Below, piece by piece: positions 44,797 to 59,842 of a DNA stretch of 64,000 bases. The position numbers were made by a program, and so were the translations under genes. The stretch's first letter is position 1; every line of letters starts with the position of its first letter. Source of the stretch: Nitrospirota bacterium (lineage in GTDB: Bacteria > Nitrospirota > UBA9217); assembly GCA_963796285.1 (NCBI GenBank), contig CAWCKW010000001.1, positions 32,001 to 96,000 of the forward strand, in the 5' to 3' direction. The notes under the pieces are model-generated. The model was given only the letters and a program-made list of their open reading frames with translations. It was not told the DNA's origin and searched no databases.

Positions 44797-46224
44797 TCAA
44801 AAATGCATTGCATTCTGTATGATCGCGATCATCGGCCCCGGATACACCCCGAGCCAGATGAGCAGGATGACGAGCGCTGCGAGGACCATGCTGCCGGAAG
44901 GCGAAAGCACGGCTATAGTCTTGTCTTCTTGCTCCGAGTGAGAGAACATTGCGACGATGATCCGGAGATAGTAAAAGAGCCCGATAACGCTGTTCCCAAT
45001 CATCACAATAACAACCAGCCAGAGGGCGGATCCCACGCCTGCCGCGATGACGTAAAATTTCCCCACGAATCCGGCTGTCAGGGGAATGCCTGCGAGCGAG
45101 AACAGCATGAAGGTAAAGACACCCGCAAGCCATGGTCTTCTCCAGGCAAGGCCCTGATAATCGTCCATGCGATCGGCATCGCGGTCTTGTTCAGAGATCA
45201 CGGTGACCACACCAAATGCGCCGAGGGTGGTGATGAAATACGCCGTCAGATAAAAGGCGGCTGCGGTCATTGCCAGGGGGCCGCTTGCCAGAACGGTCAC
45301 GAGCAGATATCCCAGATGAGAGATCGACGAGTACGCGAGGATGCGCTTCACGTTTGTCTGGAACAGGGCGAGGAGATTGCCGGCGAACATCGACGCGATG
45401 GCGATGATGGTGAATATCGCGAATAGCGGCGTGTGGGAATGGATATCGATCAGGGTGAAGTAACGAAGCACGAGTGCGAACACCGCGCCTTTGGACACCG
45501 TGGCTATGAAGGCCGTCACGGGAGCCGGCGCTCCTTCGTACACATCGGGCGTCCACATGTGGAAGGGAACCACGGCGAGCTTGAACCCAAGTCCGACGAG
45601 GATCATCACGATACCGGCAAGGAACATCAGACGATGAGCTCCCGGACCTGCTGCGAAAGCAGCGATACCGCTGAACGCCATGCTGCCGCTTTCGGCATAC
45701 ACCAGCGCCATGCCGAAGAGGATGAATGCAGATGAGACCGCGGCCAGGATGAGGTACTTGATGCCGGCCTCGACACCACGGTCGCTGTGCCGGAGATAGG
45801 CTGCGAGGGCATAGAGCGAGACGCTTAAGAGTTCAATGCCGAGGAAGAACGAGGCAAAGTGAGCTGCTGCAGCGAGCACGGAGCAGCCGAGCGTGGCGAT
45901 GATCAGCAGCAGATAGAATTCCTCTCTATGTCCTTGTTGCATCTCAAGATAGGAATAAGAAAGGCCGGCCACGGCAAAGCTTGCTGCCACGATAAGACCG
46001 ATATAAAAAAGGGCGGAGTGGTCGACCACGAGAAGAGGAGTGACCAAGCGCGGGAGCGTGCAGGAAACGAGGGGAAGGCTTGCTGCCGACAGGAAAAGTC
46101 CCGAGAGTGTCAGGATGACAGTGAGCTTGTGGCTGCGGTTAAATGCGATGGTCAGCATGACCACAACTGCGGTGGCTGCAAGGATGATGAAGGGTGAAAG
46201 AGTCTGCAGGTAAGCGATGCTCAT
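44797..46224 (-). CDS. nuoN: NADH-quinone oxidoreductase subunit N
   Basis: EAGIKYLIL, FKLAVVPFHMWTPDVYEGAP, KRILAYSSISH, AGIPLTAGFVGKF. Confidence 0.96.
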   Translation of the reverse strand: MSIAYLQTLSPFIILAATAVVVMLTIAFNRSHKLTVILTLSGLFLSAASLPLVSCTLPRLVTPLLVVDHSALFYIGLIVAASFAVAGLSYSYLEMQQGHREEFYLLLIIATLGCSVLAAAAHFASFFLGIELLSVSLYALAAYLRHSDRGVEAGIKYLILAAVSSAFILFGMALVYAESGSMAFSGIAAFAAGPGAHRLMFLAGIVMILVGLGFKLAVVPFHMWTPDVYEGAPAPVTAFIATVSKGAVFALVLRYFTLIDIHSHTPLFAIFTIIAIASMFAGNLLALFQTNVKRILAYSSISHLGYLLVTVLASGPLAMTAAAFYLTAYFITTLGAFGVVTVISEQDRDADRMDDYQGLAWRRPWLAGVFTFMLFSLAGIPLTAGFVGKFYVIAAGVGSALWLVVIVMIGNSVIGLFYYLRIIVAMFSHSEQEDKTIAVLSPSGSMVLAALVILLIWLGVYPGPMIAIIQNAMHF

Positions 46225-47862
46225 TTTCCGCCTCCCTGATTGGAGGCAGGAAACGTCAAAATATTCACCACAGAGTTCACAGAGGTTTTTGAATATCTAA
46301 TAGATTTTATCTCGGCGTTCTCTGTAGTTATTTTATGAAGATTCATTGCGTTGTTATGATCTGGAATCTGAATCTCTCCGTGTTCTCTGTGGTTAACGAA
46401 TTGAATGGCATTTAGGAGCGGTTCGACTGTTTTCAGAACAGGCCGCGGGTAAAGGCCAAGCCAGAGTATCACGAGGACCATTACCGCCATCGAGCCTGTT
46501 TCGCGTGAAGAAAGGTCAATAAGCTTCAGACCATCTTGCCTCTTGCCATGGAACACGCGCTGGACGATCCAGAGCGAGTAGATCGCGGCCAGAACAAGCC
46601 CGCTGGCGGCGAACATGGTGATCACGGGGTGGGTCCGGTATGAACCGATCAGCACCATGAACTCGGCAACGAAATTGCCGAAACCCGGCAGGCCGAGTGA
46701 GGCAAGGGCAAAGACAAGACCGAAGCCGCCGAGTCGCGGCGCCGCTGACCAGAACCCGCCCATGCCTCCCAGCTCGCGGGTATGGACGCGCTCCTGGATC
46801 ATCCCGACGATGATGAACAGCGCGCCCGTGCTGATGCCGTGGGCCACCATCTGCATGGTCGCGCCTGAGAGGGCGATCTGATTCCCGGCGAAGATGCCGA
46901 TGAGCACAAAGCCCATGTGGCTCACGCTGGTATACGCCACGAGACGCTTCAAATCGGTTTGGCCAAACGCGAGCAGAGCGCCGTAGATGATACCGATGAC
47001 GCCCAGCACCAGCATTATCGGTCCAATGGTCGCAACAGCATCGGGGAAGAGCGGCAGCACGAAGCGCAGAAGTCCATAGGCCCCGGTCTTGAGCAGGAGC
47101 CCGGCAAGGACAACGCTTCCTGCTGTCGGTGCCTCGGTGTGGGCATCAGGCAGCCAGGGATGGAACGGGACGACCGGCAGCTTTACAATGAAACGCAATG
47201 ACAAACCCGAGCATGATCCAGAACGCTGCCTGGGAAGACAAGGCGATATGGCGCAGCAGCGAGTAATCGAAGGTATAAACGCCCGTGTCCTGGCCATGTA
47301 TGAAATAGAGTGCAAGGATCGAAAGGAGCATCAGCAGGCCGCCTGCCTGGGTGAAGATGAAGAACTTGAGCGATGCATAGACGCGGTTCTCGTGCCCCCA
47401 GATGTTGATCAGGAAGTACATCGGGATGAGCATCAACTCCCAGAAGAAGTAGAACAGGAACAGGTCCACGGCCAGAAACACGCCGAGGATCCCCGCGAGG
47501 ATCCAGAGCAGGTTCATGTGGAAGAACCCAACGCGCTCTCGGATCTCGGTCCAGGAGCAGATGACGGAGATGATACCGAGAAACAGGGTAAGCGCCACGA
47601 GTACGAGGCTCAGGCCGTCCATTGCGAGGTGCAGGCTGATGCCGAGCTGAGGGATCCACGGTTTGTTTATTTCGGTCAGCCAGGCGCTTTGAGTGAGATC
47701 GAGTCGGATGGCGGCGCTCGACCAGAATGATAACAGCAGGACGGCGTCGAGTGCGAGCGCGGCGAGGGACAGCCACCGGGACAGGGTGTTGTTCCTGTTC
47801 CCGAAGAACCATGCCAGCAGTCCGCCGATCAGCGGTATGATGATGAGCCAGATTAGGATCAT
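46221..47862 (-). CDS. nuoM: NADH-quinone oxidoreductase subunit M (apparent frameshift near 47185; repeat-derived C-terminal tail)
   Basis: FFWELMLIPMYF, VKLPVVPFHPWLPDAHTEAP, KRLVAYTSVSHMG. Confidence 0.93.
46267..46393. repeat. Inverted ACCACAGAG-type repeat doublet inside the nuoM 3' end
   Basis: ACCACAGAGTTCACAGAG (46267-46284) opposes CTCCGTGTTCTCTGTGGT (46376-46393), 15/18; third copy at 46311-46328. Confidence 0.6.
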
Positions 47863-48254
47863 GTAGTAGCCCCTCCCTTGATGGGAGGGGTTGGGGAGGG
47901 TGATTTCTGAGAGCAGGTTCTTAGAATCATTTCCAAAACCCCTTCGATTTTTGTAAGTACTTCATGATTCCAGAATCTTAAAACAGAGAACCCTTGTGAC
48001 ATTAGCCAGATATCCCGATGTGAATCAACTGCTTCAGAATGCTGACCACCATCAACTTCAACGACTACAGCTTTTTCATAACATACAAAATCCACAATGT
48101 AGTTGCCGATTGGTTCTTGTCTCCTGAACTTCAATCCTTCAACTTGCTTAAAACGCAGGTGCTTCCATAAGAATCTTTCTGCGTCAGTAGCGTTTTTCCG
48201 TAGGTTTTTGGCCTTCTTGGTTAGATCAAGCGTCAAAATGCCTTCCCTCCCCAA
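47859..48254 (-). CDS. DUF559 (Vsr-like) endonuclease between nuoL and nuoM
   Basis: LRKNATDAERFLW, KFRRQEPIGNYIVDF, VEVDGGQH, VLRFWN; true start may be TTG 48236. Confidence 0.92.
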   Translation of the reverse strand: MGREGILTLDLTKKAKNLRKNATDAERFLWKHLRFKQVEGLKFRRQEPIGNYIVDFVCYEKAVVVEVDGGQHSEAVDSHRDIWLMSQGFSVLRFWNHEVLTKIEGVLEMILRTCSQKSPSPTPPIKGGATT

Positions 48255-48279
48255 CCCCTCCCACTAGGGGAGGGGCTAC
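47866..48279. mobile_element. Inverted-repeat-bounded DUF559 cassette 1
   Basis: 35-bp IRs at 47866-47900 and 48245-48279 match except in the hairpin loop; both start with GTAG on their own strand. Confidence 0.7.
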
Positions 48280-48283
48280 AGCT

Positions 48284-50175
48284 CTATTGAAGAAGCATCA
48301 CGATCCCCAAAAACACTACCGCGCCTACGACCATCGCCATCGCGTACCACCTGATGTTGCCGGTCTGGGTCTTACTCAGTGTTGTGCTCAGCACACGATT
48401 CAATGACGCGATGCCGGCATACCCGGAATCGATGAGATCATGCCTGCTGATGCGCGTGAGCCACATAAATGGCCGTATAAAAAGACGGTCATACATCGCG
48501 TCGAAGTCCCATCCAGCGAGCCAGAATTTTCTGATCGACTCGAACGTGCGTACACGGGCGATCCGATCAGCGTATTGAGGACCATCGGACAAAGAACAGG
48601 TAGGCGATGAAGATGCCTGAAAGGGAAACGATCGACGCGATGATCTGGAGCATGCCTTCACCGACGACGGGTTCAATGGCCTTTTCGCTGAACACCGTCC
48701 GCAGGAAGTTCGAGAACAGGGGCTGGTTCCCGAGCGTCTCCGGCAGCTCCACAAACCCTCCGATGATCGAGAGTACGGCAAGGATGATGAGCGGTGCGAG
48801 CATCTTTGCCCCCGGCTTATGGCTTACCGGTGTTTTTAATTCTCCAAAGAAGGTGAGGAAAACCATGCGGAAGGTGTAGATCGACGTAATGAACGCACCG
48901 AAGAGTCCGGCAGCCCACAAGGCCATGCTACCTGAACCGGATGACCAGGCTTTCCACAGGATCAGGTCCTTGCTGTAGAATCCCGCTGTCACGAGCGGAA
49001 GGGCGGACAAGGAAGCTGAACCGATCAGAAATGTCCAGAATACGGCCGGAAGTTTGTTCTTCAAACCTCCCATCTTGAACATGTCCTGCTCGTGGTGCTG
49101 GGCAAGGATCACTGCGCCAGCGCCGAGGAACAGGAGCGCCTTGAAGAACGCGTGTGTCATGAGGTGGAAGATGGCTGCGGACCAGGCGCCCACGCCAAGG
49201 GCCAGGAACATGTATCCGAGCTGGCTGATGGTGGAGTAGGCGAGGACGCGCTTGATGTCTTTTTGCGCCATCGCGCTGAGGCCCGCGACCAGAAGCGTGG
49301 CTGCTCCGAGGACAGCGATCACCGATTGCACAACAGGCGCGAGCTCGAACAGGACATGGGTCCGTGCAATAAGGTACACGCCGGCGGTGACCATGGTTGC
49401 TGCGTGGATCAGGGCACTGACAGGCGTGGGACCTGCCATGGCGTCGGGCAGCCATACCTGGAAGGGTAGCTGGGCTGATTTTCCGAGAGCCCCGCCAAGC
49501 AGAAGGGCGGCGGCAAGAACCGCGGTTTCAGAACCAACAGACCATTGTTTCGGGGCGAGGGTCATCAGCTCCTGAATATTCAGGGTGCCGAGGTTCGTGA
49601 ACAGGAGGAAAAGACCCAATGCCATGGCAGTGTCGCCGACGCGTGTCACGATGAAGGCCTTTCTCGCGGCACGGCCGTTTGTTGGGTCCGAATACCAGAA
49701 GCCGATCAGGAGATAGCTGCAAAGCCCGACACCTTCCCACCCGAGGTACAGGAGCAGCAGGTTGTCGGCGAGCACGAGGAGAAGCATCGAGCCCACGAAG
49801 AGGTTCATATACGCGAAGAAGCGGCTATAGCCCTCGTCTTCGATCATGTATTCCGTAGAATAAAGGTGGATAACCAATCCCACAATGGTGACGATCAGTA
49901 TCATGACCAGCGAAAGGGCATCGAGAGAGAAGGAGATCGGTTGCGAATATCCCTCGAACTCCATCCACGTCCAGAGCGTCTGGGTGATGGCGTGACCCTG
50001 CGGTGGATTGCCGATGAACTCGAATCGCCATGAGAACGGCAAGGAGCGCGGACATTCCCACCGAGCCTGCGCCTACGAAGGCGATAGTCGTCCTCGAAAG
50101 ACGGCGGCCTATCAGCGCCAGGACAAGGAATCCGGCAAAAGGCAGAGCGGGTATGAGGAAGAGAAATTCGTTCAT
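48284..50175 (-). CDS. nuoL: NADH-quinone oxidoreductase subunit L (apparent frameshifts near 50025 and 48585)
   Basis: GWEGVGLCSYLLIGFW, GKSAQLP, WLPDAMAGPTPVSALIHAATMV, THAFFKALLF. Confidence 0.93.
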
Positions 50176-50184
50176 AGTCAGGTT

Positions 50185-50271
50185 GTAGCCTCCCCCTTTA
50201 ATGGGGGAGGTTGGTGGGGGTAAGTTCCGACTTTTCACCCTCCCCTCAGTCCCCTCCCATCAAGGGAGGGG
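50185..50271. repeat. Gene-less REP doublet of the DUF559-flank family between nuoK and nuoL
   Basis: GTAG-CCTCCCCC-TTTAAT-GGGGGAGG-TTGGTGGGGG opposed to CCCTCCCCTCAGT-CCCCTCCC-ATCAA-GGGAGGGG. Confidence 0.75.
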
Positions 50272-50598: not shown

Positions 50599-51093
50599 TT
50601 AATGCTTGTGCGGCCTGCCGAGATGGTAGGCGCCGACCAGTCCTGCCAGAAGCAGCATGGACGCCAGTTCCACACCCAGTACGTACGGACCAAGCAATGC
50701 AATGCCTACCTGTTTGGGTGTGATTTCAGTAATAGCAGAGATTCTCGCGTGTTCCATGGTGAACAGATAGATCAATTCCGATGCAAGGAACAGGCAGAGA
50801 ATCGCCGGTCCTTTCCATATTCCCGGAGTAAGCAGCAGCGCTTCCTCTTTCGCGTGCGCTCCGCCGAGGTTCAGCATCATGATCACGAAGATGAAGAGCA
50901 CCATGATGGCCCCGGCATAGATGATGACCTCGAGGGCGGCGACAAAAGGAGCGCCGAGGATAAAGAAAATCATCGCCACGGCCAGAAGCGAAACGATAAG
51001 GTACAGGAGCGCGTGCACCGTGTTCGTCCTGGTGATGACCAGGAGGGTCGACAGGACCGCAACGAGAGCTGCAATATAAAATAATATTGTCAT
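50599..51093 (-). CDS. nuoJ: NADH-quinone oxidoreductase subunit J
   Basis: HALLYL, IIYAGAIMVLFIFVIMMLNL, VELASMLLLAGLVGA. Confidence 0.95.
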   Translation of the reverse strand: MTILFYIAALVAVLSTLLVITRTNTVHALLYLIVSLLAVAMIFFILGAPFVAALEVIIYAGAIMVLFIFVIMMLNLGGAHAKEEALLLTPGIWKGPAILCLFLASELIYLFTMEHARISAITEITPKQVGIALLGPYVLGVELASMLLLAGLVGAYHLGRPHKH

Positions 51094-51140: not shown

Positions 51141-51656
51141 TCAGGGCATCAGGCTTTTCGTGTCCACAGGCATATCTTCATTCTCCGCCTCACCTTTGTC
51201 CTTCCCCTTGATGGCCAACCCTGCGACCCGGTAGAAGTTATAATCAGGATACTTACCCGGTCCGCTGATGAGCAGGTCTTCCTTTTCATACACAAGGTTC
51301 TGCCGCACGTACTCACCCATCTCGAAATCCGTCGTGAGCTGGATCGCGTAGGTCGGGCATGCCTCCTCGCAGTATCCGCAGAAGATACAGCGCGAGAAAT
51401 TGATCCTGAAGAATTCGGGGTACCGTCTTCCGTACGCATCCTCGGTGGCCTGAAGCGCGATACAGCCTACCGGGCATGCGACCGCGCAGAGGTTGCATGC
51501 CACGCATCGTTCCTCACCATCGGGGTCGCGGGAGAGGATGATCCGTCCGCGCCACCGGGGAGGGATGGTGGGCCTCTCCTCGGGGTATTGGATCGTCGCC
51601 CGCTTCCGGAACATGGTCATGAAGACCGTGTAGATCGATTTAAGAATACTGAACAT
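51141..51656 (-). CDS. nuoI: NADH-quinone oxidoreductase subunit I
   Basis: [12 protein letters not shown] and [12 protein letters not shown]. Confidence 0.97.
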
Positions 51657-51664
51657 AAATCCTT

Positions 51665-52122
51665 TTTGACAGGAGAACAGGATAAAATCTGATAATGCTA
51701 CTTCAATCGCCTGAGCTTGCGCTTGATTTCGACTTTATCTTCACCAAAGTTAATGAGAAGTCCGATAGGTTTCCCTGTCGCAACGAGATAATTCACTAAT
51801 TGAACTTCGTGTACCTTGACAAGCTGCTTTATGGCCTTCAGTTCGAGAATAACCGTATCGTTTACAATAAGGTCTGCAATAAAATCGCCGACGAGTTCGC
51901 CGTCATAATATACTTGTATGGTTTTTGAGTCTCGACCTTTAACGCTGCTTTTCGTAATTCAATAACCAAGCATTTCTCATAAACGCTTTCAAGAAATCCT
52001 GCACCCATTTTATTATAAACGCGATATGCACAGGCAATGATTTTTTCAGTCAGTTCTTTGTATTCCAATTGGCCTCCGACAGATTCTCGCTCTTATCCTG
52101 TCAATCCTGTTATCCTGTCAAA
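51665..52122. mobile_element. Inverted-repeat-bounded GxxExxY cassette between nuoH and nuoI
   Basis: TTTGACAGGAGAACAGGAT (51665-51683) vs ATCCTGTTATCCTGTCAAA (52104-52122), 18/19 inverted; extra ATCCTGTCA unit at 52095. Confidence 0.65.
51698..52068 (-). CDS. GxxExxY protein (PD-(D/E)xK nuclease family; apparent frameshift near 51920)
   Basis: GFLESVY; second frame [28 protein letters not shown]...HEVQLVNYL...GLLINFG, TAG at 51700-51698. Confidence 0.88.
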
Positions 52123-52126
52123 GAAC

Positions 52127-53083
52127 TTAACCAGTTTTAATTAGAATAATCCATCCCGTCACCACGAGATTCACCAGCGACAGCGGCAGCATCACCTTCC
52201 ACCCGAAGGACATCAATTGATCATACCTCGGCCGGGGGAGCGATGCCCGGAGCAGGATGAAGAAACAGATGAACACGAATGTCTTTAAGGAAAACCAGAT
52301 CACGGGCGGCAGCAGCGGTCCCAGCCATCCGCCAAAGAACAGCGTTACCGTGAGCGCCGAGATGAGCGTGATCGCCAGATACTCGCCGATAAAGAACATG
52401 CCGAACTTCATTCCCGAATATTCGGAATGGAACCCGGCGACAAGCTCGCTCTCGGCCTCGGGAAGGTCAAAGGGCAGGCGGTGCGTCTCCGCAATACCGG
52501 CGATGAAGAAAACGACGAACCCGATGAACTGCGGTAGGATGAACCATCCGCCTTGCTGCGCCTCAACGATCTCGCGCAGGTTGAAGGACCCCGCGAGCAT
52601 TACCACGCCCATGAGCGACAGGCCCATGAAGACCTCGTAGCTCAGCATCTGCGCGACCGAGCGCAGGCCGCCGAGGAGCGAATACTTGCTGTTCGATGCC
52701 CAGCCCGCCAGGGCCACGCTGTAAACGCCCATGGACGACATGGCGAGGAAGAACAGCAGCCCGATGTTCAGGTCAACGACCTCGATGCCCGGCGCAAAGG
52801 GGATGACGGTAAAGGACATGAGCACGACTACCATGATCACCGCCGGTGCGATAATGAACACGGCCTTGTCCGCAAAAGGCGGGACCCAGTCTTCCTTCGC
52901 GAATATCTTGATCGAGTCCGCCAGCACCTGCAAGAGGCCGAACGGCCCCACCCGGTTCGGGCCATACCGGTCCTGCCACAGCGCCAGGAGCCTGCGCTCG
53001 AGCCAGATCAGCATACTGCCGATGGTAAGCACCACGAAGAGGATGCTGAAGAGAATGATGAGATGTAATATCGTTTCAGTCAT
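52127..53083 (-). CDS. nuoH: NADH-quinone oxidoreductase subunit H
   Basis: [39 protein letters not shown]. Confidence 0.97.
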
Positions 53084-53095
53084 GGCTTATCTGAT

Positions 53096-55609
53096 CTATT
53101 CTGAGTGGATCAATTTTGCACGTTCAACGATAGCCGGTGATTGTGCGCTCAATTCTTCTGATCCGAAGATGTTATAAACAGGTATCTCCGCCTGTTTACC
53201 CTTCGTATGATTTAGAGCTTCCGTCGTGAGATTGAAATACACAGGCTGAACTGTTGTTCCCGCCCCAATCAGGCTTTCCCCTATATCACCGCCTTTGAGG
53301 GGCCCGCCCACGTCCTGCTGGAACTTGTTCAAGGCCTGGACGGAATTCCAGCCCGGCGACCAGTAGCGGGTGATCAGCGACGGGGGAGGCTGGTCCTGAT
53401 ATCCCTCCATGGAAAAAGCAAGGGGAGAATCAGCGTCATTCGGCGGCTTTGGTTCATGCAAGCGGATGTTGGCGATCATGGCTGTGCGCCCGCTGTAGCG
53501 GTGCGGCTGGCGAGGGATCTTCTGCCCTTGTATCCTCCAATCAGCGGATGGCGCACTACTCACGGCAGGTCCGAATACCGGCATTGCAGCTGACATATCT
53601 TTCGCGATGTCATCGAAAGATTGCCATGTTGTCGATTTTCCGATCGTGGCCAGTATATCACGGATCCACTTCCAGCTTTCCTGAATGTCATGGTTCGGTT
53701 TGAATACCTGATAGAACCGCTGTGCCCGGCCTTCATTGTTCATCAAAGTTCCCTGGGCTTCCGCAAAAGTAGCAGCGGGCAGGGCGACATCCGCTTTTGA
53801 TGATGTCGGATTGACCAGGGAGTCAAGCACGATGATGTTCTTTGCATGATCCAATACTTCATCGACGATCTTTGCATCAGCCCTGCGAAAAAGGTCATTT
53901 TCAAGGATGATCATCGTATCGGCCTGACCGTCCCGGATGGATTTGAATGCCTCATCCAGGTTCTTACCCTTCATGAGAGCGAGTCCCATGGTATTACATT
54001 CCAGGACCGTGTAACAGAGGCCGGCCTGCTTCCCAATCGAGCAAAGGGCCCATGCAATATTGGCGGCTGCCTCAATGATCGCCTGGCTCATGCATCCGGT
54101 GCCGCTCACGATAACTGGACGCTTTGCATTCTTGAGCGCCGCTGCTATTTCCTTTGCTAGCGCTCTGACATCGGGTGATTGGTCTGGAACCGCGGGAACA
54201 TGCTGATCCAATTCATTTGCCACCGCAATACCGAGCCCTGCGATGTCGGCGGCCGAAGCCTGGTAGGTTTTTGTTGCAACATCATCCAACTTCGACTTTG
54301 AACCGGACGCTATGTAGATCGGTGTTTCTGAATTCTGTCCCGCGTTCCTGACCGCATTATCGTCCCAGCCGGGTATCTTCATAGCTGCCGCTGTCTCGCG
54401 TTGCTTGTTCTGAGCTGACTGACGGATCGAGAGCGCGAGCATCGGGGCTGTGTTGGTCACATCTTCACCGAGAACAAAAACCGCATCCGCAGACTCGATC
54501 TCATGCAGGGAAGGCGTGCGCGCAGGACCTTTTTGAAGAATGTCTACGATAGACCCCATGAGCGTGTGTTCCTGGCCGGACAGGCCTGAGCAGAAGTTGT
54601 CAGGACCGACAAGGGTGCGAAGGGCAAAGTTCGATTCAAGCGACGCACGGGGCGATCCGATGCCGATCATGACTTTGTTTTGGGACAGCATCTTCTTGAT
54701 CCTGCTGATCGCTGCGGTCTTGTCCGCAGGTGCCTGGCCTTCCTGTGCAGTTGCTTTAAGCAGCGCTTTTCTGATTCTGCGCCCGCTGTTCACGAATTCA
54801 TATCCAAACCTGCCGCGGTCGCAGAGGAAATAACCGTTGATCTCATAATTGTAGCGGTTCAATATTCTGCGGAGGGTGCCGTACCGTTCACCGGGAATCG
54901 TGTTGCAGCCGATGCCGCAATGAACGCAGATCGACGGCGCGGTCTGAAGGTCCCATTTTCGAGTAAAGTGCTGTTTGAGCGTTTTATCCGTAAAAACCCC
55001 GGTGGGGCAGACTTCGACCAGGTTCCCGCTGAACACGTTTTCGAGCGCGCCCTCTTCATGCCTGCCGAAATAGACGTTATCATGGGACGCGAATACAGAA
55101 AAGTCGCGGCCACCCGCATAATTACGATAGAACCTGACACAGCGATAGCATTGGATGCACCGGTTCATTTCATGATTGATGAAAGGGCCGAGGTCCTGGT
55201 TCCGTTGAGTGCGTTTTTTGAACCGCGTCCGCCGGTAAGTATGGCCGGTCATGACCGTCATGTCCTGAAGGTGACATTCGCCGCCCTCGTCGCAGACCGG
55301 ACAATCATGGGGATGGTTCAACATGAGCCATTCGATCACGCTCGACCTGAAGGCCCGAGCATCGGCATCGTCAATAGATAATCGCATTCCCTCGGCAACC
55401 GGTGTCATGCAGGACATGGTGATCCTGCCGCGCGTATCCTTGTCATCCTTGAACAGTTTGACAGCGCATTGACGGCATGCGCCCACAGAGTGCAGGGCAG
55501 GGTGCCAGCAGAAGTAGGGGAGATCGAACCCCAGCGAGAGGCAGGCCTGGAGGAGGTTCTGGCCTTCTTTGACTTGATGGGGTTTATTGTCTATATAGAT
55601 CGTAAACAT
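53096..55609 (-). CDS. nuoG: NADH-quinone oxidoreductase subunit G (long form with N7-type motif)
   Basis: PYFCWHP, CRQC, HPHDCPVCDEGGECHLQD, CIQCYRC, CVHCGIGC. Confidence 0.96.
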   Translation of the reverse strand: MFTIYIDNKPHQVKEGQNLLQACLSLGFDLPYFCWHPALHSVGACRQCAVKLFKDDKDTRGRITMSCMTPVAEGMRLSIDDADARAFRSSVIEWLMLNHPHDCPVCDEGGECHLQDMTVMTGHTYRRTRFKKRTQRNQDLGPFINHEMNRCIQCYRCVRFYRNYAGGRDFSVFASHDNVYFGRHEEGALENVFSGNLVEVCPTGVFTDKTLKQHFTRKWDLQTAPSICVHCGIGCNTIPGERYGTLRRILNRYNYEINGYFLCDRGRFGYEFVNSGRRIRKALLKATAQEGQAPADKTAAISRIKKMLSQNKVMIGIGSPRASLESNFALRTLVGPDNFCSGLSGQEHTLMGSIVDILQKGPARTPSLHEIESADAVFVLGEDVTNTAPMLALSIRQSAQNKQRETAAAMKIPGWDDNAVRNAGQNSETPIYIASGSKSKLDDVATKTYQASAADIAGLGIAVANELDQHVPAVPDQSPDVRALAKEIAAALKNAKRPVIVSGTGCMSQAIIEAAANIAWALCSIGKQAGLCYTVLECNTMGLALMKGKNLDEAFKSIRDGQADTMIILENDLFRRADAKIVDEVLDHAKNIIVLDSLVNPTSSKADVALPAATFAEAQGTLMNNEGRAQRFYQVFKPNHDIQESWKWIRDILATIGKSTTWQSFDDIAKDMSAAMPVFGPAVSSAPSADWRIQGQKIPRQPHRYSGRTAMIANIRLHEPKPPNDADSPLAFSMEGYQDQPPPSLITRYWSPGWNSVQALNKFQQDVGGPLKGGDIGESLIGAGTTVQPVYFNLTTEALNHTKGKQAEIPVYNIFGSEELSAQSPAIVERAKLIHSE

Positions 55610-57388: not shown

Positions 57389-57781
57389 TTACCTCCTCTC
57401 CCCGAGGGGAGAGGATAGAGGTGAGGGGGTGTGTTGTCTTTGTTCTATTGCTCTCAAAATTGCTTCGTATATTCCTTCTTTGTTTAGCAATATATCCCTA
57501 TTGTTGAATCTGATAATATGTATGCCCCGCGCTGACAGCGCCTTTTCTCTCTCTGCGTCATGCGTCGCGCCCTTATTTTCATAATGCTGGCCGCCGTCTG
57601 CTTCAATGGCAATTTGCAATTCAGGTGCATAGAAGTCCAGGATGTATTTGTCGATAGAAAACTGTCGTCTGAATTTAATACGAGCCAATCGTCGATCGCG
57701 TAAGAGCGACCAAAGATTTCTTTCCGCGTCAGTTTGATTTCTGCGAAGTTCTCTGCTTCTCGGTATATTGGGTCGTTTCAA
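57389..57781 (-). CDS. DUF559 (Vsr-like) endonuclease between nuoCD and nuoE
   Basis: LRRNQTDAERNLW, KFRRQFSIDKYILDFY, IEADGGQH, IIRFNN. Confidence 0.92.
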   Translation of the reverse strand: MKRPNIPRSRELRRNQTDAERNLWSLLRDRRLARIKFRRQFSIDKYILDFYAPELQIAIEADGGQHYENKGATHDAEREKALSARGIHIIRFNNRDILLNKEGIYEAILRAIEQRQHTPSPLSSPLGERR

Positions 57782-57831: not shown

Positions 57832-59581
57832 TCATCTATCCAAATCCGCCAGAATAAAATCAATGCTCCCGATGATCGCCACAAGGTCGGCGATCATCAG
57901 CCCCTTGCTGATCTTCGGCACCATCTGCATATGGGCGAACGAAGGGGTCCTGATGCGGGTACGGTAGGACATGGTATTGCCGTCGCTGATGAGATAGTAT
58001 CCGTTGTTCCCCTTGGTCGCCTCGATGCCCATGAACGCCTCGCCGGCAGGTATCACCGGTCCCCAACTGACGCCGAGGAAGTGGTTGATGAGCGTCTCGA
58101 TGTCATGCATGGTGCGTTCCTTGCGGGGCGGCGTCGTGAGCGGATGGTCTGATTTGTATCCGCCTTCAGGCATGTTGTTCACGCACTGTTCGATAATGCG
58201 CAGGCTCTGTCGTATTTCCTCGACGCGCACGACCCCGCGGTCGTAGCAGTCGCCATGGGTTGCCGTGGGGATATCGAACTCGAAGTTCTCATAGCCGGAA
58301 TACGGCCGCTTCTTTCTAAAGTCCCAATCGAATCCGCAGGCGCGGAGACCGGGACCGGTCACTCCCCAGTCGATGGCCTCGTCCTTGGTATAGATGCCGA
58401 CACCCTTGGTGCGGGCCTTGAATATCCTGTTCCGCATCACGATCGTGTCGTATTCCTTGAGCCGGGGAGGCAGGTATTTGAGAAAGTCGCGCACGAGCCT
58501 GTCCCATCCCTTCGGCAGGTCCATGGCCACGCCGCCGATCCGGAACCACGCAGGATGCATGCGTCCGCCGCAGATCGCCTCGACGATATCGAAGATACGC
58601 TCGCGGTCCGTGAACATATAGAACACCGGCGACAGCGCGCCCACGTCCTGGGCAAAGGTGCCGTACCAGACAAGATGGCTCGCGATGCGGAAGAGCTCGG
58701 CCATCATCACGCGGATGGTCTTTGCCCGGTCAGGCACCTCGATGCCCGCGAGCTTTTCGACCGCAAGGCAGTAAGCCATATTGTTCATAACGCCGCCAAG
58801 GTAGTCGACGCGGTCGGTGTAGGGGATATAGGTGTGCCAGGACTGGCGTTCGGCCATCTTTTCAGCGCCGCGGTGGTGATAGCCGATGTCGAGCACGGCG
58901 TCGGCGATCTCCTCGCCATCGAGCTGTAGGACGATGCGTAACAGTCCATGGGTGCCGGGGTGCTGTGGCCCGAGGTTCAGGAACATGAAGTCCGAGTCTT
59001 CAGAAACGCGTTTCAATCCCCAATCTTCGGGTCTGAACTTGAGCGCGGCCTGCTCTTTTTCTTCTTTTTCATCAGACAGCTCGAACGGGCCCATCTCGGT
59101 GGCCCGCGCAGGGTGGTCCTTGCGAAGGGGATGGCCGTTCCAGGTCGGAGGCATCAGGATCCTTTTCAAGTGCGGGTGGCCGTCGAACGTTATCCCGAAG
59201 AGGTCCCAAACCTCGCGCTCGTACCAATTGGCTGACTGCCAGAGGTTGGTGATCGTGGGGAATGACGGCGGATTATTCCGTGAGCGGCACCTTGATGCGG
59301 ATGTCCTCATTCCGGTCAAAGGAAAGGAGATGATATACGACCGTGAATTCACTCGCCGGCTGGTCCTGGCGATGATTGCGAACGCGCTCATCGATGGCCG
59401 TAAGGTCGTAGAGCATCTTATAGGGACGGTCGACACCTGTCTTAAGATGTCTCAAAACATCGTTGACCTTGTCGTGTGACACCCAGAGTGTGGGGATCTC
59501 ATCGCGCGTGGTCTGTTCGGCGAGAATGGAGTCGCCGAAGGTTGTTTTGAGGTCAGTGATGATGGGGTTGTTTGAGGGCAT
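57832..59581 (-). CDS. nuoC: NADH-quinone oxidoreductase fused subunit C/D (apparent frameshift near 59278)
   Basis: [49 protein letters not shown]. Confidence 0.95.
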
Positions 59582-59590
59582 AGGGTGAAT

Positions 59591-59835
59591 GCAAATGTCA
59601 AATTACAAAGCTCAGAGTTTAAAGGAATGTCAAAACGTCAATGTTTAATTTGATTATTTTGAGTCTGTATTTAATATCCTTTTTCGTCATGCCGGACTTG
59701 ATCCGGCATCCAGCGGTTTTATGAAAAGACTGGATTCCTGCCGCCGCAGGAATGACGAGCTTGAGAGAAACAGCAATGAAAATGCAAACTATATTTTGTA
59801 GTTTGATTTGTACTTTAGATTTTGAAATCTGAGCT
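59591..59835. repeat. Opposed heptamer arrays with nested CGTC-type REP doublet between nuoB and nuoC
   Basis: TCAAA(T/G)-type heptamers on the left, TTTGA-type on the right; CGTCATGCCGGACTTGATCCGGCATCCAG (59685-59713) and CTGGATTCCTGCCGCCGCAGGAATGACG (59730-59757). Confidence 0.7.
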
Positions 59836-59842
59836 TATTCCG

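Follow-up and report, generated by a model that had tools for sequence, protein, structure and literature searches.

What is a small nuclease-like gene, framed by an inverted repeat, doing between two genes of a nuo operon? The question is raised by a 64,000-nucleotide window of a Nitrospirota bacterium (GTDB lineage UBA9217; assembly GCA_963796285.1, contig CAWCKW010000001.1, positions 32,001 to 96,000), in which the nuo genes lie on the minus strand and nuoH is separated from nuoI by a spacer of 470 nt (51657-52126 in the coordinates of the window, which are used throughout). The spacer holds a gene of the GxxExxY family (PDDEXK_3; PF13366/TIGR04256), and on balance we favour the reading that it is a frameshifted copy of a self-contained, selfish gene-plus-repeat cassette that also has gene-less derivatives.

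The insert is bounded by two 19-nt arms, TTTGACAGGAGAACAGGAT at 51665-51683 and ATCCTGTTATCCTGTCAAA at 52104-52122, which are complementary at 18 of 19 positions and lie 420 nt apart, with a further repeat unit at 52090-52104 beside the gene-proximal arm. The arms stop 4 nt short of the nuoH stop codon (52123-52126) and 8 nt short of the nuoI ATG (51657-51664). An initial annotation of the window had proposed this inverted match and its spacing to both genes, and the repeat search returned the same coordinates and the same 18/19 complementarity. The arm pair scores 15 (+1 for a match, -3 for a mismatch); for 300 intervals of 345 bp drawn at random from the genome, no flanking inverted match scored above 10.

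Between the arms lie two overlapping frames, and each of them matches both models of the GxxExxY family. The N-terminal half scores 57.8 bits (E 1.3e-15) and the C-terminal half 86.7 bits (E 1.3e-24) against TIGR04256 (cut-off 35), and the corresponding values for PF13366 (cut-off 22) are 56.6 bits (E 4.1e-15) and 81.7 bits (E 6.8e-23). GFLESVY lies in the N-terminal half and ADLIV...ILELK in the C-terminal half, in the other frame (51701-51958, stop 51698-51700), and all the invariant columns of our family alignment A1 (D62, E72, K74, Q86, Y90, G99 and N103) are present in the window's row. Because both halves match the two models and together cover profile positions 1-115 of 116, we take the two frames to be a single GxxExxY gene that has lost its uninterrupted reading frame through one frameshift, located at an A5 run (51922-51926). 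The frameshift is therefore the reason that the open reading frame (ORF) track shows only the 5' half of the gene, as the initial annotation had remarked when it reported the GFLESVY and AD...ELK motifs; both motifs are there, the second in another frame. The cargo has no transposase domain.

The contigs of four public runs were compared with the window over 51200-52600. A 614-nt contig from run X1, possibly the source sample, shows no length difference from the window where the two align, and one contig of 172-226 nt from each of three other studies (X2, X5 and X6) has no substitutions but carries one extra letter in the run at 51922-51926 and one fewer in the run at 51949-51952. Translated in silico, the X2/X5/X6 haplotype heals the break in the window and is broken at the other run (...IELRKQR, then a stop), and an uninterrupted A4/A6 haplotype is not among the contigs of the four runs. 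We read the two haplotypes, broken at different A runs, as gene decay in nature, although the break in the window's version could stem from an assembly error. We also considered, and rejected, slippage during transcription or a programmed frameshift at the A4 and A5 runs: the runs are short and the haplotypes break at different ones, so that decay (or assembly error) is the simpler account.

The predicted fold agrees with the family assignment. A structure model of a related copy that lies between nuoF and nuoG in genome G008 (76 aligned sequences; genomes, contigs and loci are given by our own G, C and L labels) has a pLDDT (predicted local distance difference test) of 96.9. Its nearest solved folds by Foldseek are Cas4 SSO0001 (E 5.5e-4) and the archaeal resolvase Hjc (2wiw; E 2.6e-3, template-modelling scores 0.50/0.48), both at 17-23% sequence identity, and lambda-type exonucleases; by sequence, profile A1 had no significant match among solved structures (best E 0.86). 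The model points to a minimal PD-(D/E)XK core of the size of Hjc, which fits a DNA nuclease and names no substrate.

If gene and arms form one unit, they should be found together elsewhere, and they are. The genome has three GxxExxY loci, and all three lie between inverted repeats 420-441 nt apart, with units spaced 8-10 nt. The two intact copies, at C12:1321466-1321813 and C12:332635-332973, each have TCTCGCAAAGACGCAAAGGnCGCAAAG-type arms, separated by 424 and 441 nt, respectively, and the arms of the former are made of CGCAAAG units. The gene is present in 21 of 24 genomes of the same family and in 1 of 16 from other families of the phylum. Among the 79 loci of our family set (78 fetched plus the window copy), the best flanking inverted match (+1/-2) scores at least 14 in 48, at least 13 in 53 and at least 11 in 65, and 400 random intervals gave a 99th percentile of 11 and a maximum of 13. 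The low scorers include loci with cut flanks (L085, L086 and L106) or a wrongly picked ORF (L035 and L085). By the stricter +1/-3 score, 21 of the first 31 family loci exceed the null maximum of 10. At one family locus (L037, G001:C9) the block TTTGCCACGGATGGACACGGATAGGCACGGATAAAAACAATGAGCTTGCTTAAGATAGCCGG stands three times in tandem upstream of the GxxExxY gene, an amplification of the arm and the gene's first codons.

Outside the family, profile A2, built from the window's clade only, found 593 relatives in species-representative genomes. The best 80 of these were kept; their hosts include Nitrospinota, Geobacter, Bacillota, Planctomycetota, Bacteroidota, Chlorobi, Acidobacteriota, Chloroflexota, Verrucomicrobiota, Proteobacteria and one ANME-2 (anaerobic methanotrophic) archaeon. 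Flanking inverted matches score at least 14 in 35 and at least 12 in 43 of the 78 testable loci, and the words around these loci are nearly all of the C[AG]CN[AG]AT or ACAGGAT type. Flank analysis of homologs had been suggested in the initial annotation, with the absence of inverted repeats around them as the result that would speak against a cassette; inverted repeats do flank homologs, within the family as well as outside the phylum.

The arms do more than accompany the gene: their repeated word goes with the type of protein. In a maximum-likelihood tree of 49 copies (which leaves out the window copy, fragments L061 and L062 and 29 loci fetched later) the proteins group by arm word, namely CACGAAG, CGCAGAG, ACCGCAGAGGACGCAGAGG, CGCAAAG, CACAGAG, CCACGGAA, CGCAGATT, CACGGAT and GACAC[TG]GA. 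Sorted by regular expressions that were drawn up after the arms had been seen, proteins of the 'NFN..GI' type have C[AG]CN[AG]AG units in 21 of 21 cases, and those of the 'NFG' type have ..A[T/A] or ACAGGAT units in 39, AG-type units in 4 and other units in 12 of 55. For the window protein, the best matches over both halves (L180 72%, L136 70%, L149 67%, L179 65%, L120 62% and L184 61% identity) all come from outside the phylum, with Verrucomicrobiota, Omnitrophota and Hydrogenedentota among the hosts, and the best match within the family is 50% identical over both halves (L074) or 56.5% on a single half. ACAGGA(T) units stand beside at least 8 of the protein's 15 top matches, and upstream of L136 and L149 we find TTTGACAGGATAACAGGATGA and CTGACAGGATAACAGGATGA, almost the window's own arm, beside proteins that are 67-70% identical; the same-family copies (at most 56% identical to the window protein) have mostly other units. 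By these comparisons the arms belong to the protein clade and the unit sequence follows the clade. Since its closest relatives are in other phyla, the window copy came in as a unit and was not formed at this site.

The same agreement is seen where the word has changed. In one synteny group of seven genomes every arm unit reads CGCAAAG in G000 and G016 (G012 has a 9-nt match only) and CGCAGAG in G001, G005, G006 and G023, so that all the units on both sides have changed together, and the G000 protein of this locus clusters in the tree with the same-word proteins of other genera, not with those of its genus mates. Tandem-unit counts of CGCAAAG and CGCAGAG are 112:45 in G000, 93:50 in G012, 16:42 in G001, 16:72 in G005 and 16:57 in G006 (for CGCAGAG in G000, 15 hits in the backward-read control show that this control is not clean), and the word at the locus is the genome's commoner dispersed word in 5 of the 5 genomes with both counts (G016 and G023 are outside this set).

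What is conserved in the arms could be either the word or the stem that the arms might form. In the 42 of 82 arm pairs that pass a periodicity filter (periods 8, 9 and 10), the two arms differ at 31 of 734 unit-constant positions (4.2%) and at 72 of 384 unit-variable positions (18.8%; Fisher p = 2e-14). Transitions that would keep G:U pairing show no excess on the sense strand (18 sense against 28 antisense, with 49 transversions). With arm differences rarer at unit-constant positions and no wobble signal, the sequences indicate that conservation acts on the repeated word, as one expects where a protein recognises DNA, more than on the perfection of a stem.

The arms are also dispersed through the genome without the gene. 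The 19-mer ATCCTGTTATCCTGTCAAA has 46 genome matches at up to 4 mismatches, against 5, 7 and 9 in three shuffled versions, and 7 at up to 1 mismatch, including the cassette's own two arms. The copies share the tail ...CCTGTCAAAAAGG[A/T]TTT, often with a third unit, and their flanks read cagatttt(t)atcctgt; the arms are ATCCTGT-periodic, as the initial annotation described them, and its phrase that the gene is bounded by its 'own' repeats holds in that they belong to the protein clade but not in the sense of exclusive use, as gene-less copies exist. Several of these are inverted pairs with short spacers (C3:206587/206640, C8:2200/2263, C12:326424/326500, C13:414878/414951 and C13:395086/395121), and in two places ACAGGAT-type arms enclose another element: at C12:171455-171667 this is a GIY-YIG-type repeat, at C12:154900-155112 a CACGAAG-type hairpin. 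The genome has many other inverted pairs whose arms consist of 2-3 units spaced 8-10 nt (CGCAAAG, CGCAGAG, CACGGAG, GCGGATT, CAGGAGA and others), and a 14-mer of the TCTCGCAAAGACGCAAAGGnCGCAAAG-type arm has 80 matches at up to 1 mismatch, mostly gene-less inverted pairs. Such unit arrays hardly occur outside the gene-bearing bacterial family: two unit types are found 0-1 times outside it, and a third 7 times in G029.

Contigs of gene-less copies match the window only up to 51689-51694. Contig joints that skip about 400-410 nt (from 51689-51694 to 52095-52104) were considered as possible excision of this insert and set aside; their shorter side is 21-28 nt, 12-29 unrelated letters stand between the two parts, and we read them as other gene-less repeat copies. 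In G000 a local duplication has placed a CGCAAAG-type hairpin, followed at once by an ACAGGAT-type arm, at both C3:40068-40215 and C3:42109-42256; the two copies are 2041 nt apart and their flanks are identical.

The nuoH-nuoI site itself tells a similar story. Relatives with nuoI number 20, and 20 nuoH-nuoI junctions can be read in 19 of them (L009 is without nuoH). The spacer is 12-32 nt in seven junctions (L010, L017, L019 and L022-L025), 86-176 nt in twelve and 340 nt, with two tandem elements, in L011; neither a GxxExxY gene nor any other gene is present in any of the 20. The spacers of L007, L008, L011, L016, L020, L021 and L026 start with (T)TAGACAC or TTGACAC and end with GTGTCA[AT]A just 5' of the ATG, and in L007, L008 and L026 the TAG of the element is the nuoH stop codon. 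We had considered these spacers as clean complementary stems and dropped the idea; because in only 4 of the 13 long ones does the inverted match beat every shuffle, we claim inverted terminal units for them and nothing further. The closest relative, G004 (NuoI 95% identical), carries a different, degenerate element at this junction, and by this comparison the turnover of elements at nuoH-nuoI is fast.

A second nuo junction is occupied by related copies. Intact cassettes of the window's clade lie between nuoF and nuoG in G005, G008, G014, G018 and G020; where their proteins align with the C-terminal half of the window copy, identity is 46-57%. On either side of these cassettes TTTGACACTGA..-type units adjoin the nuoF stop and the nuoG ATG, and one relative's copy has GACACTGA arms; G023 has fragments at the distance expected for this junction, and in G000 nuoF and nuoG are 22 nt apart. 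Synteny of the gene in nuo operons, which the initial annotation had set against its own proposal, is absent at nuoH-nuoI and present, for a related cassette, at nuoF-nuoG in these five relatives. About 0.7 kb downstream of nuoI in G020, L061 (C5:40880-41077) is a degenerate GxxExxY fragment with three stops, and would be a third nuo junction with a remnant.

The nuo operon in the window has other inserts, and in all it holds three small nuclease genes plus further repeat elements. A DUF559 gene (PF04480, E 5e-41) at 47859-48254, between nuoL and nuoM, has a perfect 19/19 inverted repeat, TGGGAGGGGTTGGGGAGGG, with arms at 47882-47900 and 48245-48263. The initial annotation had called the GxxExxY and DUF559 genes unrelated nuclease/repeat pairs with the same lifestyle; the shared lifestyle stands, as DUF559 too has its own inverted repeat in the operon, but the two are not wholly unrelated, both being placed in the PD-(D/E)XK superfamily in the relevant entries of a survey (PMC3424549). 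An arm similar to TGGGAGGGGTTGGGGAGGG is present on contig C8 near 1310, and a second DUF559 gene (PF04480, E 2.7e-33) lies at 57389-57781, between nuoCD and nuoE. The nuoB-nuoC gap of about 260 nt (59582-59842) is filled with gene-less repeats such as CTGGATGCCGGATCAAGTCCGGCATGACG (59685-59713), a 29-mer with 13 genome matches that also brackets, as an arm pair, the GIY-YIG gene at C10:72935-73348.

Taken together, these observations suggest the following course of events. The cassette consists of a GxxExxY nuclease gene of about 125 codons with its own putative ribosome-binding site and two inverted arrays of a cognate 7-nt unit, which in the window is ACAGGAT, spaced 8-9 nt. What the nuclease would recognise is the set of repeated units, not a perfect stem, and it would cut at or near them; cutting would allow whatever lies between arms, the gene included or not, to be copied elsewhere in a homing-like or transposition-like manner, much as REP-associated tyrosine transposases (RAYTs) act on REPINs, the doublets of repetitive extragenic palindromes (REPs). 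The gene-less copies would be derivatives moved in trans. The cassette would be co-transcribed with nuo, since no promoter or terminator signal in it stands above chance. Its arms may pair in the messenger RNA and so bring the nuoH stop codon beside the ribosome-binding site and start of nuoI; such pairing would preserve coupling, and the insertion would consequently be tolerated in a tightly coupled operon. The copy in the window would be in decay and would finally end as a gene-less element like those of the relatives.

Beyond this locus, it is possible, and we propose it tentatively, that GxxExxY proteins in general, which make up a very large family, are word-specific nucleases, each tied to a cognate 7-nt unit that recurs in the inverted arrays beside its gene, and that they create, maintain or move gene-less hairpin repeats. 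The REPIN-RAYT system would then have a second counterpart, built on PD-(D/E)XK enzymes, that also crosses phyla and can switch specificity with all its units at once, as from CGCAAAG to CGCAGAG at the one syntenic locus.

Several points weigh against this account. The proposed action of the nuclease on its own arms is deduced from their association. The flanks of 31 of the 79 family loci and 43 of the 78 broad loci are not above the null maximum, only 4 of the 13 long gene-less spacers of relatives have an ungapped inverted match above every shuffle, and no target-site duplication was recognised when filled and short nuoH-nuoI junctions were compared by eye. Most protein clades in the family are synteny groups, inherited vertically, so the agreement of clade and unit within the family is partly shared descent and its rows are not independent; in addition, the 'NFN..GI' and 'NFG' classes were defined after the fact, and conversion of the arms at a locus to whichever repeat type dominates the genome could account for the match just as well. 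The missing sense-strand G:U excess speaks against RNA pairing as the main constraint on the arms. The gene is broken in both haplotypes seen, and this copy is therefore unable to act alone. Finally, indel errors in the assembly are likely, because nuoL (48287-50238) has two frameshifts, nuoM (46224-47961) has one and the N-terminal part of nuoC (57832-59581) lies in a separate frame, and the break in the window's version may itself be such an artefact. One of the nuoL breaks is an extra C relative to G004, and a nuoI query found a single nuoI-type operon in the genome. The nuoJ of G004 also looks frameshifted, and G/C runs of at least 10 are present in intergenic DNA at G000 C12:1807237 and, around position 1235, at the C13 locus L076, which bear on the indel quality of the assembly.

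The alternative that survives best, though we think it unlikely, is that the gene is a passenger: the periodic hairpin repeats would be independent, with a different enzyme to move them or a use to the host as structural DNA or RNA motifs, their loops would be favoured landing sites, and GxxExxY would be one of several small selfish genes that land or ride in them with no action on the arms. The nesting of hairpin elements within one another at the two C12 loci above is what one would expect of this, as is the similar bracketing of the DUF559 gene (47882-48263) and of the GIY-YIG gene, and so are the gene-less elements at the nuoH-nuoI site of relatives. Many unit types in the genome, moreover, have no GxxExxY gene, and G002, G003 and G017 have 43-66 CGCAAAG arrays without a cognate-armed gene in our census. 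A passenger, however, would be expected to adopt the arms of each new host, whereas in several phyla one protein subclade keeps its own units even though the other repeats of each host are different, and non-coding arms stay nearly identical beside proteins of only 67-70% identity. Nor did the genome yield another mover: of its two Y1 (IS200/RAYT-type; PF01797) matches, one is a full-length, IS200-like gene whose end hairpins are unrelated to the arms, and the other is weak, partial and located where a contig ends (C12:2055289-2055564), the ends being compared for the full-length gene only.

An RNA intervening sequence is a still less probable explanation. Here the arms would serve chiefly to form a stem in the nuo transcript, at which cleavage by RNase III would free the cargo messenger RNA and separate or re-couple the nuoH and nuoI parts. 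The predicted fold is compatible with it, as the arms pair in both the minimum free energy and the centroid structure (-129.4 kcal/mol, z = -3.05) and the stem reaches the AAGGA before nuoI. The arms abut the nuoH stop and nuoI start, and a scan of 51500-52300 for promoters and terminators gave nothing above shuffles (the TTGACA in the arm has no matching -10), so that the insert should be co-transcribed. The layout also matches that of a 428-nt, ORF-bearing intervening sequence in the 23S rRNA of Coxiella (S23p), as outlined in PMC4990558. Against this stand the arm mismatches, which have no sense-strand G:U bias, and the conservation of the unit word instead of the stem; a stem alone would not need a unit that is conserved across phyla. 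Chance, or a nuo operator or attenuator unrelated to the ORF, we regard as very improbable: the TTGACA in the arm and its place between two operon genes are in its favour, but the arm pair outscores all 300 random intervals, the layout recurs around homologs in unrelated gene contexts, the arms have no promoter-like site, and seven relatives manage with a spacer of just 12-32 nt. We thus return to the selfish cassette as the preferred reading; its parts in the window are listed in Table 1.

Table 1. Features of the nuoG-nuoJ region and the nuoH-nuoI insert, in order along the minus strand
Feature	Position	Strand	Details
nuoG	53096-55609	-	ORF list
nuoH	52127-53083	-	Stop TAA 52127-52129; ORF list; 55-97% identity to nuoH of relatives (tblastn)
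Gene-proximal (5') arm array	52090-52122	-	Gene-strand TTTGACAGGATAACAGGAT-TGACAGGATAAGAG, three ACAGGAT units; arm proper 52104-52122
Cargo leader	52069-52089	-	Shine-Dalgarno-like GGAGG 52073-52077, putative ribosome-binding site of the cargo gene, 4 nt 5' of TTG start 52066-52068
N-terminal frame of GxxExxY gene	51862-52068	-	68 aa, GFLESVY; leaves the true frame, then stop
A4 run	51949-51952	-	One letter fewer in contigs of three other runs, where the frame breaks here instead
A5 run (T5 on plus strand)	51922-51926	-	Frame break in window version; one letter more in three other runs
C-terminal frame of GxxExxY gene	51698-51958	-	D...ExK, Q, Y and N columns kept; stop TAG 51698-51700
Gene-distal (3') arm	51665-51694	-	Arm 51665-51683; stretch to about 51694 common to gene-less copies
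Gap before nuoI	51657-51664	-	AAGGA 51660-51664, within the tail conserved among repeat copies (...CCTGTCAAAAAGG[A/T]TTT); probably the nuoI ribosome-binding site
nuoI	51141-51656	-	ORF list; relatives 55-95% identical
nuoJ	50599-51093	-	ORF list

The entry for PF13366/TIGR04256 in the PD-(D/E)XK survey (PMC3424549) gives its function as unknown, and the titles and abstracts of the few papers that our searches for GxxExxY, PDDEXK_3/PF13366 and PDDEXK enzymes with inverted repeats brought up, one of them on CRISPR-associated transposons, contain no description of a gene-plus-repeat package. If each clade has a readable cognate word beside its gene, the function of the family becomes directly testable with oligonucleotides. 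If the account given here is true, it would explain a large class of periodic intergenic hairpin repeats in the operon spacers of this lineage, and small enzymes whose word specificity can be read from their flanks would be a natural source of sequence-specific DNA tools. There is also a lesson for annotation: such inserts lengthen operon spacers, give host genes their stop codons or ribosome-binding sites and are easily miscalled.

Comparison with known systems is informative in placing the cassette. The closest in organization is the REPIN/RAYT system of REP doublets and their transposases (as presented in PMC3116915, PMC3337134 and bioRxiv 10.1101/2022.05.22.493013). In both cases an enzyme gene is flanked by an inverted short repeat that is also dispersed as short-spacer inverted doublets, the genes are often syntenic and long-lived, and the genome's repeat type matches the flanks of the gene. 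The enzyme is an HUH-type Y1 transposase in the one and a PD-(D/E)XK protein of about 125 aa in the other, and the single REP palindrome, tagged GTAG or CGTC, has as its counterpart here arrays of 2-3 units spaced 8-10 nt in each arm; the cassette's gene and arms, in addition, cross phyla. Miniature inverted-repeat transposable elements with an autonomous parent, of which the Correia/NEMIS elements of Neisseria are an example with many short gene-less copies, resemble the cassette in their terminal inverted repeats, gene-less copies and location in operon spacers, and presumably also in co-transcription. They differ from it in that the cassette has no transposase of a known family and no recognised target-site duplication, and in that its arms are made of repeated words.

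Small PD-(D/E)XK nuclease genes, free-standing or borne by introns, are known as selfish inserts, and the VSR/DUF559 row of the survey cites a group I intron homing endonuclease (PMC3424549). The cassette has no intron or intein, and the presumed target of its nuclease is the word that flanks the gene and not an empty allele. With the Holliday-junction resolvase Hjc and with Cas4 the protein shares a minimal PD-(D/E)XK core of about the same size, a likeness that goes no further than the superfamily. ORF-bearing intervening sequences in 23S rRNA, found in Leptospira as well as in Coxiella, are, like the cassette, inserts of about 0.4-0.5 kb with one small ORF and inverted repeats that could pair as a stem in the host transcript, and they too are regarded as selfish. 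They lie in a helix of 23S rRNA and encode an S23p four-helix-bundle protein, whereas the cassette occupies the nuoH-nuoI spacer of a messenger RNA operon and has a nuclease ORF with periodic, clade-specific arms. Its enzyme is not of the HUH type and its host is not an rRNA, and these two features set the cassette apart from both REPIN/RAYT and the rRNA intervening sequences.

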